Of a DNA stretch of 64,000 nt, positions 14,481-61,999 are shown in pieces (the first letter of the stretch is position 1; each line of letters begins with the position of its first letter). A model generated the notes under the pieces. That model searched no databases. It had not been told where the DNA came from and saw only the letters and a program-made list of their open reading frames with translations. The position numbers were made by a program, and so were the translations under genes. The DNA comes from Candidatus Magasanikiibacteriota bacterium (GTDB lineage: Bacteria > Patescibacteriota > Patescibacteriia > Magasanikbacterales > UBA922), in NCBI GenBank assembly GCA_041665025.1, contig JBAYJP010000004.1:26311-90310 (forward strand). Reading direction: 5' to 3'.

Positions 14481-15707
14481 ATGTCAGTGCCAACATTCAT
14501 GGTAAAAAAACAAGATGGCACCCAAGTCAAAATGACATTGGACGAGTTTAAGGTATACCAACAGACACTAAAGCACTTGAGCACTAAAGCACTTGAGCAC
14601 AACGACCAACCTCTCAATCAGCCAGCTAAAGAAGTTGCAAAGAGTGATGACGTGCCAAAAGGAAAAATGGCTATAGTTGAAAAAAAGGAAATAAAACAAA
14701 AAAAAGAAGAATTGCCCATGGTATTGGGGACAGAAGCAGTGACAACGGTGAGTCCGGTGAAAGATGTATTTGTTGACGAAGCTAAATATGTACGAAATTC
14801 GAAAACTGCGAAAAATACGAAAGTAAACGAGAAAAATATTGTTGAAAAAGAGGTTAAAAAGCCTATTTCATTAGCTAAAGATGATTTTGTATCGTTATTA
14901 GAAGAAGATGAGGAAGATGTGCCTAAACCGCAAGGACAAGCAGTAACGATGAGTTCGTATGATGATGTGGTGAAAAAAATTATCACTGAAAGCGGAGTGC
15001 GTGTGCCCGCAGATCTGAAAGAGAGGCTTTCGTCGCTTATTTTGTCCTATATCAAACAAGTTCGTGATGAATACCAATTTATTGACTATGCAGATCGACC
15101 GGCACAAAGGGGAGGTGTGGGTTTGTCAAAAGATGATGCTTCAAAATTATTATCAATGATTAAAAAAACCAATACTCAGCCTGCTAAGCGTAGTTTAGAG
15201 ATTGTTACGGATTCTATTGTTACTAAACCCGCACAGAAAAGTTTGAATGTTATTACGGATTCCACCTCGGTTAGATCTATTGAACGAAGTCAAAAGATTA
15301 TTACGGATTCCGCTATTGATAAACCAATTGATATAGTACAGCCACGCAACGTGGTTCATGATATTGTCTCCATACCGCCTGAACAAAAAACAGTGGGACC
15401 AGAAGGAGAAATGAGTACGTTTGGATTATCAGATTTTCGTAGATTGGCCCGTGATCCTGCAAAAGCCCGCGACATGCTTTTTTCAAAGATTCAGGGGTGG
15501 AAAGCCGAGTCTTTTTTACTCTATATGAAAGCAGCACAGGCCTGGCACAAGAGTCCTCTCTATAGAGAATATCTTGACTTGACGGAGAATTCACTTAAAG
15601 AAAATACGCAAATTTCACAATTGTTGATCGAGCAAACAAAGGCTGGGGGGATGACATTTGGAGAATATAAAGAAATTGTTGAGTTGAATAGACAACTTAG
15701 TAACTAA
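14481..15707 (+). CDS. hypothetical protein with internal ~50-60-bp tandem repeats
   Basis: The ATG at 14481 follows the upstream stop. Three imperfect repeats (..ITDS..) span 15190-15330. Confidence 0.5.
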   Translation: MSVPTFMVKKQDGTQVKMTLDEFKVYQQTLKHLSTKALEHNDQPLNQPAKEVAKSDDVPKGKMAIVEKKEIKQKKEELPMVLGTEAVTTVSPVKDVFVDEAKYVRNSKTAKNTKVNEKNIVEKEVKKPISLAKDDFVSLLEEDEEDVPKPQGQAVTMSSYDDVVKKIITESGVRVPADLKERLSSLILSYIKQVRDEYQFIDYADRPAQRGGVGLSKDDASKLLSMIKKTNTQPAKRSLEIVTDSIVTKPAQKSLNVITDSTSVRSIERSQKIITDSAIDKPIDIVQPRNVVHDIVSIPPEQKTVGPEGEMSTFGLSDFRRLARDPAKARDMLFSKIQGWKAESFLLYMKAAQAWHKSPLYREYLDLTENSLKENTQISQLLIEQTKAGGMTFGEYKEIVELNRQLSN

Positions 15708-20486: not shown

Positions 20487-20559
20487 CGTAGTTATAAAGT
20501 TGAAAGTTATAAAGTTTGTAAAGTTCAAATCAATTTTTCATAATTCATCATTAATCTTA

Positions 20560-25391: not shown

Positions 25392-25481
25392 TGGCGGAGA
25401 GATAGGGATTCGAACCCTAGGTCCACTTTCGCGGACTGCAGTTTAGTAAACTGCTGCTATCGACCACTCAGCCATCTCTCC
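25392..25481 (-). tRNA. tRNA-Ser-like, class II, anticodon loop reads UUACUAA (anticodon ACU, atypical A34)
   Basis: Perfect 7-bp acceptor GGAGAGA/UCUCUCC, T-arm UAGGG-UUCGAAU-CCCUA, long variable arm, CCA encoded. Confidence 0.6.
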
Positions 25482-25555
25482 TCGCAGTTATAAAGTTGAA
25501 AGTTTATAAAGTTATAACGTAACAATATTGGACATTATAACTTTTAACTTCGGCG

Positions 25556-26339: not shown

Positions 26340-28376
26340 ATGGACCTTAAAGGTTTTTTTTCTAATCACATAAAACCAATACTTTTTTCTTGGCGTCGTG
26401 TTGGTGTTTCTGTTCTTGTCGTTGCTGGGCTTGTGGGTATTTTTTTATTGGCGGGTTTTGGGTATGTGAAAGCATATGAAGGAAAAGTGCTACCCGGGAT
26501 TTTTATTGGGGATATATCAATCGGGGGAATGGACAAAGAGGAGCTGGGTAATTTTATCCGCCAGATGAATACTAAACTTTTGGATGAAGGTATTTTTGTT
26601 TCATTCCAGTCTGATGGTCAGAAAAAAGAATTCACTATCAACCCAGTCACCGTGGGGGATCAGACTGCCGAAGAATTGATTACATTAGACGTAGATAAAG
26701 AAATATCATACCTTTTGCAGTATGGACGCGGAGGTGGTTGGTTTGACACAGTCGTAAATACAGTCTTGACGCGCGTGCGTCAACCTCATCTCACATTACA
26801 AACAGTACAAATACAGAAAAATTATATTCTAGATCAGATTCGTGGATCTCTTGAGGGGTACATTGTTGAGCCTGTTGATTCAAATATACGTATAAAGACG
26901 CTCGCACCTCTTACGTATGAAGTGACATCGTCTACTCCGGGAAATACGTTTGATTATGAACAGGTATTAAGTACGGTGAAACGCTCATGGTCAGAATTAA
27001 CTTCTCCACAAGTAGCTATTACTTCATACACAAAAAATCCAACCATTGTTGAATCTGATGTGCAAGGAATGAGTAACCGATTACAAGCGGTTTTTACACC
27101 GGGCCGGCTTGATATACTTTTTACTGATCCATACACTACACGTGAATATACGTGGTTTGTTTCTCCAGAAGAAATGGCTTCGTGGATTGAAGTTGAGCGC
27201 GTATCTGATGGTTCACTCGTGTTTGGCCTCAACTATGAGCGTACCGTAGCTTTTTTGAAAAAAGATATTAGTGACGTCGTGAATGTGGAAGCTGAAGATG
27301 CAAAATTTAACGTGGCTTCAAATGGTAAGGTGGTAGAATTCCAAGGTTCGCGTCCTGGGGTTACGGTTGACCTTGAAAAAACATATGCAGATATCAATCA
27401 AGCATTTATTGGGCGTACATTGCATGACGAAGGGGTAGTGAAGGCAATCACGCTCACTACCATGCAGGTCGAACCAAATATAAAGACAGGCGAGGTGAAT
27501 GACTTGGGAATTTCTGAAGTTCTTGGTTTTGGCCATTCCAAATTTCGTGGCAGTCCAGGGAATCGTATAAAAAATATTCGTCATGCGGCATTTGATAAAT
27601 TGAATGGACTTTTGATCAAACCTGGTCAAGAATTTTCTTTGATACAAGCTTTGCAACCTTTTACGGTAGAAGATGGATATTTGCCTGAGCTGGTCATAAA
27701 AGGGGATAGGATAGTGCCAGAATTGGGTGGGGGTTTGTGCCAAGTGGGTACGACCATGTTTCGTGCTGCTATGAACTCCGGCCTTGTTATCACTGAACGT
27801 AGAAATCATTCGTTGGTTGTCCCTTATTACAATGATTTATCCAATGGAAATCCGGGGACAGATGCGACGATTTACGAACCTCATCCGGACTTTCGATTTT
27901 TAAATGACACAGGTAAACACATCCTCATAACTTCAGAATTCAATACACAAACATCTGACTTGTATTTTTATTTTTGGGGTACAAACGATGGCAGGAAAGG
28001 ATATTATTCTGCTCCGCAAGTTTCAAGGTGGATTCCCGCTGGTGAACCTCGTATGATAGAGACTACAGAACTTCCTGTAGGGAAAAAAGAGTGTCAGGAA
28101 GTACATATGGGGGCAGAGGCTAGTTTTACCTACACACGTGAACTTGCGTCTGGAGAAAAAATACAAAAAGTCTTTGAAAGCTATTATCGTCCGCTTCCTC
28201 AAATTTGTTTGGTAGGCGTAGAAAAAGTGGCTGAGACTACATGTCCAGAAGGACAAGAATGTCCAACAACTGAAATCCCTTCAGACACACCAATTGGCGA
28301 ACAGGGTTTTGATCCAAATGTTGACTTGTGGGGGAGTAATCCTCCAGCTGAAGCTGGTACGAGTACGGTTAATTAG
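26340..28376 (+). CDS. VanW-family protein with N-terminal TM anchor
   Basis: VanW core GGGLCQVGTTMFRAAMNSGL and preceding G5-like beta region. Length 678 aa. Confidence 0.75.
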   Translation: MDLKGFFSNHIKPILFSWRRVGVSVLVVAGLVGIFLLAGFGYVKAYEGKVLPGIFIGDISIGGMDKEELGNFIRQMNTKLLDEGIFVSFQSDGQKKEFTINPVTVGDQTAEELITLDVDKEISYLLQYGRGGGWFDTVVNTVLTRVRQPHLTLQTVQIQKNYILDQIRGSLEGYIVEPVDSNIRIKTLAPLTYEVTSSTPGNTFDYEQVLSTVKRSWSELTSPQVAITSYTKNPTIVESDVQGMSNRLQAVFTPGRLDILFTDPYTTREYTWFVSPEEMASWIEVERVSDGSLVFGLNYERTVAFLKKDISDVVNVEAEDAKFNVASNGKVVEFQGSRPGVTVDLEKTYADINQAFIGRTLHDEGVVKAITLTTMQVEPNIKTGEVNDLGISEVLGFGHSKFRGSPGNRIKNIRHAAFDKLNGLLIKPGQEFSLIQALQPFTVEDGYLPELVIKGDRIVPELGGGLCQVGTTMFRAAMNSGLVITERRNHSLVVPYYNDLSNGNPGTDATIYEPHPDFRFLNDTGKHILITSEFNTQTSDLYFYFWGTNDGRKGYYSAPQVSRWIPAGEPRMIETTELPVGKKECQEVHMGAEASFTYTRELASGEKIQKVFESYYRPLPQICLVGVEKVAETTCPEGQECPTTEIPSDTPIGEQGFDPNVDLWGSNPPAEAGTSTVN

Positions 28377-28430: not shown

Positions 28431-28521
28431 TCTTCGGCAGCGCAACTCACCCCGTCCCGAATACTCGGGACACCCCTCTCTTACTAAGAGAGGGGTCGGG
28501 GGTGAGTTGTGTGGAAGAAAA
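28431..28521. repeat. GC-rich nested-hairpin element (family with 60175-60290)
   Basis: Outer stem gcaactcacccc/ggggtgagttg encloses hairpins gtcccgaatactcgggac and cccctctcttactaagagagggg. Confidence 0.7.
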
Positions 28522-28902
28522 AATAGACTTGTATTTTTATCGAACAGGAAAATTTCGTAATTGGGACTATTGAACTTGTCGATTATATATTAAAATTGGC
28601 TAATTTAAGCCAATTTTTTGTTTTTCCCACAGGTGGTGTCTTGACAATAATGCTTGGGTATGTTATTATATGCTGTTATTTAACAGTAGACGAAAGTAAA
28701 AGTGATATAGAGGAATATGTGTTTTGTTGTCCTGTACAACGTAAACACATACTCTCCTGTATCGGTTTGTTAGTTTGTTGAATGTGGTTGTACAGTAATA
28801 GTAAAGAACACAATTCAATATACATCTCCCCAAAGAGACGAGGATTCAGAATCGTACATATTTAGAAGAAGTTTTGTGAAATAAATATGTATAATCCTGT
28901 AT

Positions 28903-29040
28903 CCACGACAAGCATGGGGGTGTGTTGTAGGGTAGCACAGGCTACGGCTCGTCTTTTCCTCTAACACACCTTCTTGGGTACGGGTAAGGTTCATCCTTAC
29001 ATGCAAATAGCCCTCCGGATAATCTCCGGAGGGTTTTGTT
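28903..29040 (+). ncRNA. candidate small RNA (extended -10 promoter to intrinsic terminator)
   Basis: TGtATAAT at 28888-28895. The ~135-nt interval has nested helices (ggtgtgtt...aacacacc, gtaagg..ccttac) and ends at the terminator at 29011-29040. No plausible ORF. Confidence 0.3.
29011..29040 (+). terminator. rho-independent terminator
   Basis: ccctccgga-taatc-tccggaggg followed by ttttgtt. Confidence 0.65.
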
Positions 29041-29295
29041 ATTGACAAAATAAGATATATGTGATATAGTGATCCGTTTATTATACACGCAATAGCAACA
29101 TTGTTGTGGTTCGTGTTGTAAACAACGTCCATTACAATTCACCACACTTTTTGTGAATAGAGTATTTGGGATTATTGAAAAATATTTTCAAATACTCTAT
29201 TCACGTGTCGCCCGAAGTTATCGGGTGAGTGATACTCGAGAAGACAGGAGAGTTCCAATACCGAGCAGAAGGGAACGACGAGCAAGCGTCTCGCC

Positions 29296-29664
29296 GTGGT
29301 TGTGCTGATCGGAGTGAACTTATGGCTCGCGGTCGCGTTGTATACGCCGTCGGCCATGGAGTCGATCCAGATCGAGCAGTGCGACATCACGGCAGGGTTC
29401 CTGCCGGGGAAGGAGGTGTACAGCTGCGATCTGTTCGACTACGATGCGAATTTCCTCGAGGCGATTGTGATCGAGGAAGATGAACGTTTCCAATGGCACT
29501 GCACCCTAGGCGTCGAGTATATCAGATGTATCGACGCGACGGGCCATGCGGTCTGGCCCGAGAAGAGCACGGCCATGTGCCCGTTCACGGGCAGCATGCC
29601 GAGCTGTCCCGAGGCCCTCGGGGGTGCTGCCGAGCCGATGGTGGTCGTGCTGCCGAGCCAGTGA
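29296..29664 (+). CDS. small secreted Cys-rich protein encoded in a high-GC island (likely horizontally acquired)
   Basis: Strong G/C third-position bias in this frame only. GTG start, hydrophobic N-terminus VVLIGVNLWLAVALY, 8 Cys, and a hairpin terminator ggtgacg..cgtcacc right after the stop. The overlapping ORFs in other frames are GC-induced artefacts. Confidence 0.5.
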   Translation: MVVLIGVNLWLAVALYTPSAMESIQIEQCDITAGFLPGKEVYSCDLFDYDANFLEAIVIEEDERFQWHCTLGVEYIRCIDATGHAVWPEKSTAMCPFTGSMPSCPEALGGAAEPMVVVLPSQ

Positions 29665-29896
29665 CGAGGAGGGGTGTGGTGATTCGGACCCGACCAAGTC
29701 GGGGCCGTGGACGCCATCGGTGACGCCGTCGTGAGACGATCGTCACCGGCCCTTCTTTTGTGTATCAATGTTGATATATAGAAGAAGAGAAAATATTTTT
29801 ATAAAAAAGACTGGCGTTAGACGTCAGTCTTTTGTTTCTATAAACATGTGGTAGGAAAGATTCCTCCCCGCCTTGGGCGGATCGGAATGAACTTAT

Positions 29897-30505
29897 TTAC
29901 TCAATCATTTTATCCACTATACCATATTCAACCGATTCTTTTGCAGTCAAGAAATAATCTCGATCAGTATCTTTTTCAACTTTTGCTATTTCTTGTCCTG
30001 TATGTTTTGACAGGATATGGTTTAATTGGTCTTTGGTTTTCAAGATGCGTTCTGCATGAATTTTTATATCACTTGCTTGGCCTTGCATGCCACCCATGAC
30101 TTGGTGGATCATGACTTCACTGTTGGGAAGACAAAATCGTTTCCCTTTTTTGCCCGCTGCCAATAGCACTGACGCCATACTGGCTGCAAGCCCGATACAC
30201 ACTGTCGAAACATCGGATTTGATGTATTGCATGGTATCGTACACCGCAAGCCCAGCAGTGACTGAACCACCAGGAGAATTGATGTACAATTTGATATCCT
30301 TATCCGGGTCTTGGTTATCCAAAAAGAGTAATTGCGCAATGACAATATTTGCCACATGATCATCTATTTCTGTACCAAGGAAAATAATACGGTCCTTGAG
30401 CAGGCGTGAATAAATGTCATAGGCTCGTTCGCCGTACGATGTCTTTTCAATAACTGTTGGAACGAGGATTTGGTTATGGAGTGGGGATAATGTGTCGATA
30501 GACAT
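29897..30505 (-). CDS. clpP: ATP-dependent Clp protease proteolytic subunit
   Basis: Catalytic Ser in GLAASMAS, plus His (MIHQ) and Asp. Length 202 aa. Confidence 0.92.
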
Positions 30506-30514
30506 ATTTTATTG

Positions 30515-30548
30515 TTAATAGTAAGATCAGAAGATCGAAAGATCATTT
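30515..30548. repeat. inverted repeat flanking four-helix-bundle gene (aagatc x3)
   Basis: taagatcagaagatcgaaagatcat. Its partner lies at 30899-30942 (atgatcttttgatcttacgatctta). Confidence 0.6.
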
Positions 30549-30899
30549 TTTGAGTGAATTAATATACAAATTAAGATCTTTTGTAAGTTGTTTATACAGA
30601 TTATTTATATGAATAAATTCTTCTTTTGTTAAATAATTTTTGCCGAATGCTACAGACAAGTGACTTCTTGCTTCGGCTATTTCACCGCGTGATATATACA
30701 GAATTCTTTTTTTGTCTGCATAATAAAATCTTCCATGAGATTCAGCTATATTCGCAATGATACTATTTGCAGATCGTACTGTCTGTGACACGAGAGCATA
30801 TTTTTCCCATTCAGGATATTTTTCCGTAATGGTATATACATACATAAGAGCATTATAGCCATTTTTCCATATACCAAGCTCATAAAACTCTTTGTACAT
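30543..30899 (-). CDS. four-helix-bundle protein (23S rRNA intervening-sequence protein family), second copy
   Basis: 118 aa with ANIAESHGRFYYADK... pattern, homologous to the protein at 19492-19845. Confidence 0.8.
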   Translation of the reverse strand: MYKEFYELGIWKNGYNALMYVYTITEKYPEWEKYALVSQTVRSANSIIANIAESHGRFYYADKKRILYISRGEIAEARSHLSVAFGKNYLTKEEFIHINNLYKQLTKDLNLYINSLKK

Positions 30900-37266: not shown

Positions 37267-37911
37267 ATGGTAAAACAAGACTCTTCAGAGATCGAAAAAA
37301 TTCAAAATGAAGAAGGGGTAGAGCAAATCAATAACCTTGATGAAATTCATGAAAAAGGCTTTCTCAATAAGGCCGGTTTGTTTTTTTTGGAAGTAATCAA
37401 AATTGTCGTACTCGCAGGCATTACTATTGGCTTAGTCAGGTATTTTCTCTTTAAGCCTTTTTATGTAAAAGGCCAGTCCATGGAGCCGACATTTTATGAA
37501 CGAGATTATCTTATTATCGATGAAATTACCTATAGATTTCGTTTGCCAGAACGGGGTGAAGTAGTTGTTCTAGATTCACCAGTCAATAGTGACCATTATT
37601 TAAAAAGAATTGTCGGAGTTCCTGGTGATCGTGTAAAAGTAGAGGAAGGAAAAGTTATTATATATAATGACACATACCCTCGCGGTTGGGTACTTGAGGA
37701 AGAATATGTGACAGAAAATACTCCGGGGTCTTTGAGTATCACGCTTGGAGATAATCAATATTTTGTTTTGGGGGATAATCGTGATGCAAGTTATGATTCC
37801 CGTCGTTTTGGTGCTATCAACCGTAGTGAGATTATCGGACGCGTATGGCTACGCGGATGGCCATTTAGCCGTGTGTCTACGTTTACCGTGCCAGAATATA
37901 CACAGAGTTAA
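37267..37911 (+). CDS. lepB: signal peptidase I
   Basis: Catalytic Ser box GQSMEPTF, RIVGVPGD, and VLGDNRDASYDSR (Lys box region). Confidence 0.85.
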   Translation: MVKQDSSEIEKIQNEEGVEQINNLDEIHEKGFLNKAGLFFLEVIKIVVLAGITIGLVRYFLFKPFYVKGQSMEPTFYERDYLIIDEITYRFRLPERGEVVVLDSPVNSDHYLKRIVGVPGDRVKVEEGKVIIYNDTYPRGWVLEEEYVTENTPGSLSITLGDNQYFVLGDNRDASYDSRRFGAINRSEIIGRVWLRGWPFSRVSTFTVPEYTQS

Positions 37912-37997
37912 AAGTTGTAAAGTTTTGTATATAACTTACAACATTATAACTTTATAACTTGGAACATTATAACTTTACGACTTTAATTATTTTTAGT

Positions 37998-55243: not shown

Positions 55244-55657
55244 ATGAATTTAAAAAAAACTGTTATACTATTTAGTGTGGGTGTTCTCCTTGTGCTGTTG
55301 GGGACAGGTCTATGGTTTTTTGTATCTCGTGGAAAGAAAATTGTTACTGATAAACAAGATAAGGACGGAACAGCTTCGTCCACATCGCAAGGAACTATTA
55401 CAACTACAGACATACCTGAATGGTATGCAACTGACAAAGACGCGGATGGTATAGAAGATACAAAAGAAGATGAATTGGGATTAGATAAATGGGCAGCTGA
55501 TACTGATGGAGATGGGATTTCTGACTTTGTAGAAATCAATGAATTCAAGACAGACCCAAGAAATCCTGATACGGACGGTGATGGTTTTTGGGATGGAGTT
55601 GAACTTGAAAGTGGATATAATCCACTAGGAGAAGGGAAACTTATAACTTCAAGTTGA
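55244..55657 (+). CDS. TM-anchored protein with thrombospondin-type-3-like DxDxDG calcium-binding repeats
   Basis: N-terminal TM, then DKDADGIEDTKEDE, DTDGDGISD and DTDGDGFWDGVE repeats. C-terminal GYNPLGEGKL. Confidence 0.6.
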   Translation: MNLKKTVILFSVGVLLVLLGTGLWFFVSRGKKIVTDKQDKDGTASSTSQGTITTTDIPEWYATDKDADGIEDTKEDELGLDKWAADTDGDGISDFVEINEFKTDPRNPDTDGDGFWDGVELESGYNPLGEGKLITSS

Positions 55658-55758
55658 AGTTATAAAGTTCCAAGTTATAAAGTTGTAAAGTTCATAAAAT
55701 ATTTGTTACTTTCAACTTTATAACTTTATAACTTTATAACTCTATAACTCTATAACAT

Positions 55759-60290: not shown

Positions 60291-60509
60291 AGTTAGAGGG
60301 TGGTTTGCGTTGCAGAGTAAAAGAAAAAGAACTTCATAGTATACAAATTGTATTCAATTCCTTGACACATGTTTTTATAATCGTTACACTAATACCATCA
60401 AAAAGTTTTTGAATAGTTTATTTGTATAATGAACAAAAATAGTGTTCAAATAAATTTTTTTCTCTAAACTTTATAACATTATAACTTTAAAATTTTTAAC
60501 TATCACTTT

Positions 60510-61799
60510 ATGCCTCAAGTAAAACCTGAAGTCGAAACATTTGCTAAAATAAAAGTCGTAGGAGTTGGAGGGTCCGGAGGGGCGGCTATCAACCGAATGG
60601 TTGAGAGTAAAATTCGTGGCGTAGAATTTATTGTACTTAATACTGATGTACAGGCTTTGCATCATAATAATGCACCAAAAAAATTACACATTGGTAAAAC
60701 CATTACACGCGGTCTTGGTGCAGGAATGGATCCTGAAAGAGGCAAAAAAAGTGCTGAAGAATCACAAAATGAAATTCGTGAAATTTTGAAAGACACGGAC
60801 ATGATTTTTATCACGTGCGGTTTGGGCGGCGGTACAGGGTCAGGAGCAGCTCCAATCGTCGCACAAATAGCCAAAGACATGGGAGTTCTAACCGTGGGCG
60901 TTGTTACTAAACCTTTTACTTTCGAAGGACCTCAGCGTAAGCTTATTGCTGACAGAGCACACGAAGAACTCGCGCGTCACGTGGATACGATTATTACCAT
61001 ACCAAATGATCGCATTTTGCAGATTATCGATAAAAAGACTTCTCTACTTGAAGCATTCAAAATCGTTGATGATGTATTACGCCAGGGGGTCCAAGGTATT
61101 TCTGAACTTATCACGGTTCCAGGTCTTATCAATGTCGATTTTGCCGATGTCCGAACTATTATGAGCGATACGGGTTCTGCCCTTATGGGCATTGGTGTGG
61201 GTAAAGGAGATAATCGTGCGATAGACGCAGCAAAGGCTGCGATATCTAGTCCGTTGCTTGATTTATCTATTGATGGGGCGCGTGGAATTTTGTTTACGAT
61301 TACTGGTGGAAACAATTTGGGAATGCAAGAGGTTGCCGAAGCTGCCAAAGTTATTACCAGTTCGGCTGATGATAATGTGAAAGTTATTTTTGGTACGGTT
61401 ATCGACGAACAAATGGGTGATGATGTTAGAGTTACTGTTGTGGCGACAGGGTTTGAAGAACGTGACCATATGCCGAAATTATCAAATGATTCTCAAAATC
61501 CTGGATTGGATGCATTTACGATTAGACGGCCATTATTTTCATCTTCCCAATTATTTACCAAGCGTTCGGATAATGACGCAAAAGAAAAAGAACGTACAGA
61601 GCCAAATGATGACAATGACATGGAAGATATCCCGATAATTCCTCGAACTCCATTTGTGAAAAAAACAGTGGAGAGTATGTTGAATCCATCATCAAACCTT
61701 GCTTCTCAATCGAGCAAATCGGCCTCTGATGCCAGTAAAGACGGCGATAGTGAAGATCTTGAAATTCCTGCATTCATACGAAAGAAAATGGGGATGTAG
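60510..61799 (+). CDS. ftsZ: cell division protein FtsZ
   Basis: GVGGSGGAAINRM, the tubulin signature GLGGGTGSGAAPI, and the T7 loop region. Confidence 0.95.
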   Translation: MPQVKPEVETFAKIKVVGVGGSGGAAINRMVESKIRGVEFIVLNTDVQALHHNNAPKKLHIGKTITRGLGAGMDPERGKKSAEESQNEIREILKDTDMIFITCGLGGGTGSGAAPIVAQIAKDMGVLTVGVVTKPFTFEGPQRKLIADRAHEELARHVDTIITIPNDRILQIIDKKTSLLEAFKIVDDVLRQGVQGISELITVPGLINVDFADVRTIMSDTGSALMGIGVGKGDNRAIDAAKAAISSPLLDLSIDGARGILFTITGGNNLGMQEVAEAAKVITSSADDNVKVIFGTVIDEQMGDDVRVTVVATGFEERDHMPKLSNDSQNPGLDAFTIRRPLFSSSQLFTKRSDNDAKEKERTEPNDDNDMEDIPIIPRTPFVKKTVESMLNPSSNLASQSSKSASDASKDGDSEDLEIPAFIRKKMGM

Positions 61800-61840
61800 A
61801 CGAAGTTGAAAGTTGTAAAGTTAAAAGTTATAAAGTTGAC

Positions 61841-61868
61841 AAAAGCCATCATTCTGTATGGCTTTTGT
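61841..61868 (+). terminator. rho-independent terminator after ftsZ
   Basis: aaagccat-cattctgt-atggcttt followed by tgtgt. AT-rich stem, moderate strength. Confidence 0.5.
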
Positions 61869-61999
61869 GTATTTTACACATTTTGTGTTTAAGAAAGATA
61901 ATGTGGTATACTAACAAAGTTAAATGTCATAATGTTCCAAGTTATAACGTACGAATTGGTAACTTTATAACTTTTTACTTTCAACTTTATAACTTTCGT

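Follow-up and report, generated by a model that had tools for sequence, protein, structure and literature searches.

Does a short GC-rich segment in an otherwise AT-rich bacterial genome record a recent acquisition, or can such a composition belong to a resident gene? Atypical GC content and codon usage serve as the standard quick test for recent transfer, and the locus examined here looks like a textbook case. It lies within a 64-kb stretch of DNA, hereafter the window, whose source organism is assigned to the CPR bacteria because the product of the gene under study is filed in NCBI under Candidatus Magasanikbacteria. An initial annotation, made from the DNA letters alone, interpreted the segment as a recent horizontal acquisition, possibly from a high-GC host, that encodes a small secreted Cys-rich protein. 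We instead consider it reasonably probable that a resident gene, standing alone, makes up the island and that it belongs to an uncharacterized family, so far found only in Candidatus Magasanikbacteria-type (CPR) genomes. Because the GC excess recurs at unrelated loci in several genomes, the GC-rich, GC3-rich composition looks like a property of the family rather than a mark of recent import.

A GC-rich island between vanW and clpP

The compositional island spans 29206-29750 (61.3% GC, no strand assigned) and occupies part of a 1.5-kb gap between vanW (26340-28376, +) and clpP (29897-30505, -). Its flanks have 37% GC on the left and 39% on the right, with a window mean of 40.1%, and the most GC-rich 480-bp stretch of the 64 kb starts at 29271 (0.627 GC), the runner-up elsewhere reaching 0.485. 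Both edges are abrupt: GC rises from 0.22 (29151-29200) to 0.54 (29201-29250) on the left and falls from 0.72 (29701-29750) to 0.24 (29751-29800) on the right. The shift is completed within about 50 bp at either edge, and the edges roughly coincide with the transcript body. The jump described initially, from a background of about 36% to about 65%, is borne out by sliding-window GC, although the values need correction to 61-63% in the island (62.6% for 29270-29750) and 40% in the background.

The strong third-position bias that had been reported for the ORF at 29296-29664 (+) is equally clear. Its GC1/GC2/GC3 values are 0.585/0.431/0.813, and GC3 > GC1 > GC2 is the ranking that genes of GC-rich genomes would be expected to show. 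In all 45 other window ORFs of at least 100 codons, GC3 is at most 0.423, which places this ORF 10.5 standard deviations higher, and resampling its codons from the codon usage of its neighbors predicts a GC3 of 0.38 ± 0.04 (z = 10.8 for the observed value). The ORF thus has the atypical composition and codon usage that are looked for in a transferred island (GC3 of 0.81 vs. at most 0.42), and the sliding-window and codon-usage analyses proposed with the initial annotation both single it out as an extreme outlier with sharp edges. The island is confirmed as a genuine feature of the composition of this DNA.

A segment of this kind could in principle be an artifact in which a high-GC fragment was joined, through chimeric assembly or contamination, into a low-GC contig, and the exact gene is indeed on record in one contig only. 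Against an artifact, both flanks belong to a single syntenic block (vanW ... clpP-DHH-SMC) that is also present at a second locus, L003, and the insert is a complete family gene, correctly placed behind a promoter of the family type. Relatives, moreover, show equivalent AT-rich/GC-rich junctions that were assembled repeatedly: for two family members each, contigs from three separate assembly sources carry the same junctions. A chimeric assembly is unlikely, and to a contaminant join at this site we assign almost no weight.

We also rejected the possibility that the island is the target of a diversity-generating retroelement: it has no template repeat in the 64-kb window, no reverse transcriptase occurs among the ORFs scanned between 26.5 and 32.5 kb, and the coding strand shows no depletion of adenine (A 68, T 76).

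Transcription signals and reading frame

A sigma-70-type promoter is found at 29042-29070 (+; TTGACA-17-TATAGT with TG before the -10 element, 11/12 matches in a consensus scan). It is embedded in AT-rich DNA, in agreement with the AT-rich promoter region described earlier, and would place the transcript start near 29077. Extended -10 promoters of equal quality occur in AT-rich DNA upstream of most family copies. The leader of about 220 nt (29076-29295, +) is predicted to form three hairpins (MFE of -73.2 kcal/mol, z = -5.2) and matches no Rfam family. RNA folding places the first hairpin at 29076-29123, a long AT-rich second hairpin of 19 bp at 29153-29204, and a GC hairpin that marks the left island edge at 29208-29228 (all +). 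The second of these is the inverted repeat that had been noted in the promoter region: its arms (29153-29168 and 29189-29204) form a perfect 16-nt repeat that is unique within the 64-kb window, but they are located in the transcribed leader, 3′ of the promoter.

The CDS at 29296-29664 (+) encodes 122 aa and matches the family HMM with E = 3.5e-39, while the NCBI annotation starts it at GTG 29302 to give 120 aa. Directly 5′ of the called start, an open in-frame stretch (29233-29295, +) shows GC3 bias in 15 of 21 codons. It encodes a peptide ending in TEQKGTTSKRLA, which, judging from its residues, appears to be the missing positively charged (Lys/Arg) part of the signal peptide, and it probably represents a remnant of the gene's former 5′ end. 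Within this stretch, a Shine-Dalgarno sequence (AGGAG, 29246-29250) is followed 6 nt on by an in-frame AAT at 29257 in the place expected of a start codon. In relatives, GGAGG precedes an ATG by 5-7 nt, whereas no Shine-Dalgarno sequence is found ahead of GTG 29296, which suggests that the start codon originally used, with its Shine-Dalgarno spacing, has been lost from the window copy. Weak translation from the internal GTG is one possibility; the other is that the gene is beginning to decay.

Downstream of the CDS, the 3′ untranslated region (29665-29763, +) is GC-rich (folding z = -3.4) and contains hairpins at 29685-29707 and 29718-29748, followed by the T-rich tail CCCTTCTTTTGTG. The initial annotation had placed a hairpin terminator right after the stop codon; the GC hairpin at 29718-29748 with CCCTTCTTTT instead begins 54 nt past it and is absent from the calls of a consensus terminator scan. 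Together with the T-rich tail, it is a probable intrinsic terminator and forms the right edge of the island (about 29750). The same scan calls a palindromic terminator, AAAAGACTGGCGTTAGACGTCAGTCTTTT, at 29805-29833 (no strand assigned), between the small-protein gene and the convergent clpP, which may stop transcription from both directions. The signals seen suggest that the gene is transcribed from its own near-consensus promoter, via a hairpin-rich leader, to a GC-rich terminator.

In AT-rich genomes, rRNA, tRNA, RNase P and tmRNA genes stand out by composition, and the segment could likewise be mainly a structured non-coding RNA in which the ORF is incidental. The stretch from 29200 to 29770 does fold better than shuffled controls (z = -4.65 on the + strand and -5.04 on the - strand), as does the coding part alone (z = -3.9). 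The two strands score alike, however, as expected from local palindromes, and a search with Rfam covariance models gives no match at the gathering score and none even at E = 10. The period-3 GC pattern and the homology at the protein level, with conserved Cys, Pro and Gly columns, are instead the signature of coding constraint. Other strongly GC-rich family genes have z scores near 0, and of the remaining copies only the mildly enriched one at L006 reaches -2.3. With the strong score of the coding part confined to the window copy, we rejected shared excess RNA structure as the cause of the high GC, and we regard the non-coding RNA reading as very unlikely.

Just upstream of the small-protein gene, we observe a second transcription unit (28641-29040, +) with a promoter, TTGACA-17-TATTAT, at 28641-28669 and a terminator at 29009-29035, in which there is no convincing ORF and no Rfam match. 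The 3′ core of this unit (window positions 28892-28992) contains CACGACAAGCAYGGGGG, and this block is nearly identical at the related loci L001 (8250-8620) and L003 (6510-6700), where VanW shares only 33-56% identity with its counterpart in the window. The core has a shared fold with compensatory changes in 10/32 pairs, and CCTGTATCC-type modules recur upstream of it. The unit is probably an undescribed small RNA tied to the vanW neighborhood. Directly 3′ of vanW, at about 28435-28513, lies a GC-rich nested palindrome, CAACTCACCCCGTCCCGAATACTCGGGACACCCCTCTCTTACTAAGAGAGGGGTCGGGGGTGAGTTG, that is missing at the corresponding place in L001. On the other side of clpP, between it and the DHH gene, a 118-aa four-helix-bundle protein is encoded at 30543-30899 (-); it belongs to PF05635 (23S rRNA intervening-sequence protein), shows a weak bAvd (Avd-like) match and has no adjoining reverse transcriptase gene.

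Further repeats are scattered over the window. A dispersed palindromic repeat of about 40-90 nt (ATGTACGAAATACGAAAACTGCGAAA... and its complement) is present in at least 7 copies, at 14785, 15715, 16229, 17482, 26209, 40286, 56661 and nearby, and resembles a REP- or MITE-like element. Short repeats of the AAGTTATAAAGTT type are clustered intergenically at 20487, 25483-25550, 37896-37988, 55655-55755, 60449-60503 and 61794-61996, with some of the clusters adjoining tRNA genes. One of three tandem tRNA-Ser genes (25392-25481, -) has the anticodon ACT according to ARAGORN, with GCT and TGA in its neighbors; bacterial tRNA-Ser does not usually have A at position 34.

Protein family and predicted product

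A word-index protein search with the single sequence returns only the gene's own product (99% identical; NCBI, Candidatus Magasanikbacteria, hypothetical protein). With the family profile as query, the matches listed by the same search are four proteins already in the family. When 1.84 billion representative proteins are scanned exhaustively with HMMER, by comparison, 32 matches emerge, among them about 25 small homologues. These relatives are 90-215 aa long, with one of 314 aa, and share 30-39% identity over the domain, the closest relative of the window copy being 39% identical over this region. They define an uncharacterized family, described here by alignment A2, with the motif GF.PG..C.LFD…VRC.D..G…P….CPF.G..P.CP. 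The broader form that we use for membership, GF.PG..C.L[FY]D ... [FY][VI][RK]C.D..G...P....C.F.G..P.C (alignment A2), is present in the window ORF, which reads GFLPG..C.LFD...IRC.D..G...WP....CPF.G..P.CP. All three named family members are Candidatus Magasanikbacteria. A degenerate DNA pattern for CPF.G..P.CP finds one real member, L104, among the matches listed from metagenome contigs and only chance matches in viral contigs, and blastn searches of plasmid and phage collections give no match.

The product consists of a hydrophobic N-terminal segment followed by a beta-rich domain of about 75 aa. Of its initial description, the length of 122 aa and the hydrophobic N-terminus hold, while the count of 8 cysteines is reduced to 6. 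In the family alignment, C44 and C78 are invariant and P88, C95, F97, G99, P102 and C104 are near-invariant, and the window ORF keeps every one of these residues. AlphaFold2, run with the family alignment, gives a mean pLDDT of 82 with block means of 91-97 over residues 31-100, such that the core of the product is confidently predicted as a small beta-rich fold. The order GC3 > GC1 > GC2, the retention of the invariant residues and the confident model of the core lead us to conclude that the ORF encodes a real, constrained protein.

The earlier view of a small secreted Cys-containing protein is supported by the hydrophobic N-terminus, the 6 cysteines and the exported type of the relatives, all of which are read from sequence. 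A signal peptide of the lipoprotein kind is found in the family and not in the window copy: by a simple pattern rather than a trained predictor, most relatives have a lipobox-like motif that ends the signal peptide, while the window product has no lipobox, there being no Cys before residue 29. Most relatives in this respect resemble small disulfide-containing bacterial lipoproteins or exported beta-sandwich domains, with a lipobox signal peptide and a beta-rich Cys domain.

Database searches give little further indication of function. Across 24 family members, there is no match in Pfam, NCBIfam, PHROGs or PADLOC; a RiPP model weakly matches 1/24 members (E = 7e-4); and sequence-profile searches of the PDB give no match for the family. 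A literature search found nothing on it, and the genomic contexts of the relatives are unrelated to each other. The suggestion of a secreted effector, a bacteriocin-like peptide or an immunity-related product does not find the corresponding context here, as the neighbors are vanW, clpP, the 23S-IVP-like gene and the DHH gene and no modification, export or immunity genes are adjacent. From the features of the sequences, we infer an exported, probably disulfide-bonded, fast-evolving surface protein. An N-terminal hydrophobic segment would export or anchor the small beta-rich domain, whose four near-invariant cysteines (six cysteines in the window copy) are probably disulfide-bonded. Because most relatives are lipoproteins, the protein would most likely reside at the outside of the cell membrane. 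Its gene evolves far faster than the neighboring genes, which would fit a surface protein facing a host cell or phage.

Composition of the family and the question of transfer

To place the composition of the window copy within the family, we read the DNA around 11 other members; roughly half of the family clusters, found on contigs of about 1 kb, were left out. At 9/11 of the loci read, all with low-GC flanks, the gene of the family is enriched in GC, the exceptions being L003 and L145. In the enriched copies, GC3 is 0.52-0.78 vs. 0.22-0.51 in their neighbors. By locus, it is 0.78 at L146 (neighbors 0.31-0.49), 0.74 at L014 (0.22-0.51), 0.73 at L005 (0.25-0.41), 0.71 at L011 (0.22-0.39), 0.62 at L143 (0.32-0.43) and 0.59 at L144 (0.23-0.26, with 0.49 in a 74-aa downstream gene). 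At L008 and L006, GC3 is 0.66 and 0.52 where 0.47 and 0.37, respectively, are expected from the codon usage of the neighbors, and at L104 the family gene has about 0.64 GC between flanks of about 0.30 GC. Of the two exceptions, the L003 copy has a GC3 of 0.32 among neighbors at 0.23-0.36, and the L145 copy has 0.44 next to one neighbor at 0.38 and a second, GC-rich neighbor at 0.74. Resampling from neighbor codon usage gives GC3 z scores of 11.9 for L014, 11.2 for L011, 9.2 for L005, 4.7 for L008, 3.2 for L006 and 0.7 for L003. Since GC1 and GC2 are raised along with GC3 in the window ORF and in its GC-rich relatives, the pressure acts on all codon positions. Ordinary translational selection was rejected as its source, given that the enrichment extends to codons ending in G as well as in C and that GC3 is low in the L005 and L011 genes for ribosomal proteins.

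Beside family members, we also observe hypothetical genes with no Pfam match that are GC3 outliers in their own right, at L145 1123-1686 (0.74), L008 7902-8660 (-) (0.79), L006 4233-4643 (0.61) and L144 2750-2974 (0.49). GC-rich orphan genes may thus be a wider feature of these genomes, beyond the family.

The age of the GC-rich state can be judged from the loci L005, L011 and L104, which are orthologous (CDP-alcohol phosphatidyltransferase, hypothetical gene, family gene, mutS). Between L005 and L011, amino acid identity is 80% for MutS and 92% for ribosomal protein S9 vs. 48% for the family protein, and the flanking DNA is 83-88% identical while the family gene does not align reliably. At conserved residues of the family gene, the fraction of identical codons is 0.35, with 0.40 expected by chance; in MutS, where some signal is retained, it is 0.56 vs. 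0.46 by chance. Identical codons at the chance level imply that the synonymous sites of the family gene have fully turned over between these two loci, that is, that they are saturated. Both genes nonetheless have a GC3 of about 0.72 among neighbors at 0.22-0.41, whereas a gene left over from an earlier transfer would by now have moved toward the GC3 of the genome, 0.3-0.4. The amelioration expected of a transferred island is therefore not observed at L005 and L011, a result that applies to the family and not to the window lineage itself. Saturated sites combined with a maintained GC3 mean either that some force holds the GC content in place or that alleles are repeatedly swapped in from a GC-rich pool that has these flanks in common and would be found within Magasanikbacteria. 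The contigs of L011-L013 and of L008-L010 are near-identical, too similar to reveal polymorphism.

The same comparisons bear on the proposal of a recent horizontal transfer, which our analysis does not support. No relative from a recognizable high-GC genome occurs among the 1.84 billion representative proteins, so that the donor homologues in high-GC taxa that a BLAST-type search was expected to reveal are not found, and all loci read have low-GC flanks. We observe no integrase near the gene, its neighbors being vanW and clpP, and no tRNA target, the nearest tRNA genes lying at least 3.5 kb away. The island sequence is not repeated anywhere in the 64-kb window and has no flanking direct repeats. 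A mobile cassette common to the family was rejected, as no boundary motif or attachment site is shared among the 12 loci. Given that neither relatives in a high-GC context nor marks of mobility are found, the data do not support a high-GC host as the source of a recent transfer, and the other observations, an endemic family, a member in the same slot at another locus and a composition that persists in orthologues, point in the same direction.

A narrower form of import has to be weighed separately, in which the window lineage recently acquired a GC-rich allele that took the place of, or pushed aside, a native low-GC copy between clpP and vanW. The most direct comparison is with the L003 member (P0004), which lies in the same gap, SMC and DHH being close by at both loci. 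It is 33-34% identical to the window product, has a native low GC of 0.36 and is encoded on the opposite strand, as would fit a native allele that was exchanged in the window for a GC-rich import, and in a further relative, L001, no family copy follows vanW, although synteny is broken there. The extreme composition with its sharp edges and the raised GC1 and GC2 are what one expects of DNA that evolved in another compositional setting, and the damaged translation start resembles that of an imperfectly integrated or decaying gene. An as yet unsampled high-GC organism could have served as donor, but a different Magasanikbacterium with a GC-rich allele is the more plausible source. On the other side, the protein and plasmid/phage searches yield no homologue from a recognizable high-GC genome and no match on a plasmid or phage, the integrase, tRNA target, flanking repeats and shared boundary motif that might accompany an import are lacking, the promoter is of the same native type as those of relatives, and the GC-rich state of the family is long-lived in other lineages. 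We consider recent import of the window copy rather unlikely, if a serious contender, and continue with the reading of a resident gene whose composition is a family trait.

For such a resident gene, a locus-specific force would keep the family genes at a GC-rich equilibrium. Candidates for this force are selection on the transcript and biased gene conversion tied to frequent allele exchange, a further candidate being the exchange of alleles from a GC-rich pool in circulation among Magasanikbacteria. Put in general terms, we tentatively propose that targeted or recombination-linked biased conversion, or transcript selection, maintains a lineage-specific exported-protein family of an AT-rich CPR lineage at a GC-rich equilibrium of its own, where GC3 exceeds that of the genome by 30-45 points. 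Its islands would mimic transfer and would represent a class of fast-evolving surface genes that island detectors misclassify; we hold this proposal as a possibility that is less than even.

Comparison with known systems shows where this locus departs from them. Compositional genomic islands from recent horizontal transfer are reportedly treated by Lawrence and Ochman within a framework of amelioration. Like the island described here, transferred islands are short segments with sharp edges whose GC content and codon usage are far from those of the genome. Unlike them, this island has no donor clade, mobility genes or insertion scars that we could find, and its family is endemic to the recipient; transferred islands also ameliorate, whereas the orthologues of this family with saturated synonymous sites have not. 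In Enterobacteriaceae, the O-antigen and capsule gene clusters are low-GC, hypervariable and persistently atypical loci between conserved genes. They share with this locus a fast-diverging, surface-related character, a position between conserved genes and a persistent difference in composition, but they are low-GC, multi-gene clusters for glycan synthesis, while here a single gene of about 400 bp has high GC and encodes a small protein. Allele exchange is, for this locus, hypothetical. Finally, bacterial ORFans are said by Daubin and Ochman to be typically short and AT-rich relative to the genome. The family gene is similarly short, fast-evolving and narrow in taxonomic range, with no known domain, but ORFans deviate toward AT, whereas this gene deviates toward GC and has a confidently predicted fold and conserved cysteines.

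What sets this case apart is that a transfer signal of textbook appearance turns out to be common to the homologues of the gene and to survive synonymous turnover. Should the proposed explanation not be upheld, the gene would be one more hypothetical gene. If it is true, compositional screens in CPR genomes over-call transfer, and some process keeps specific genes GC-rich inside an AT-rich genome. To our knowledge, very few candidates for molecules that mediate host contact have been identified in CPR bacteria. The family described here is a candidate cell-surface factor in bacteria that are thought to live attached to a host.
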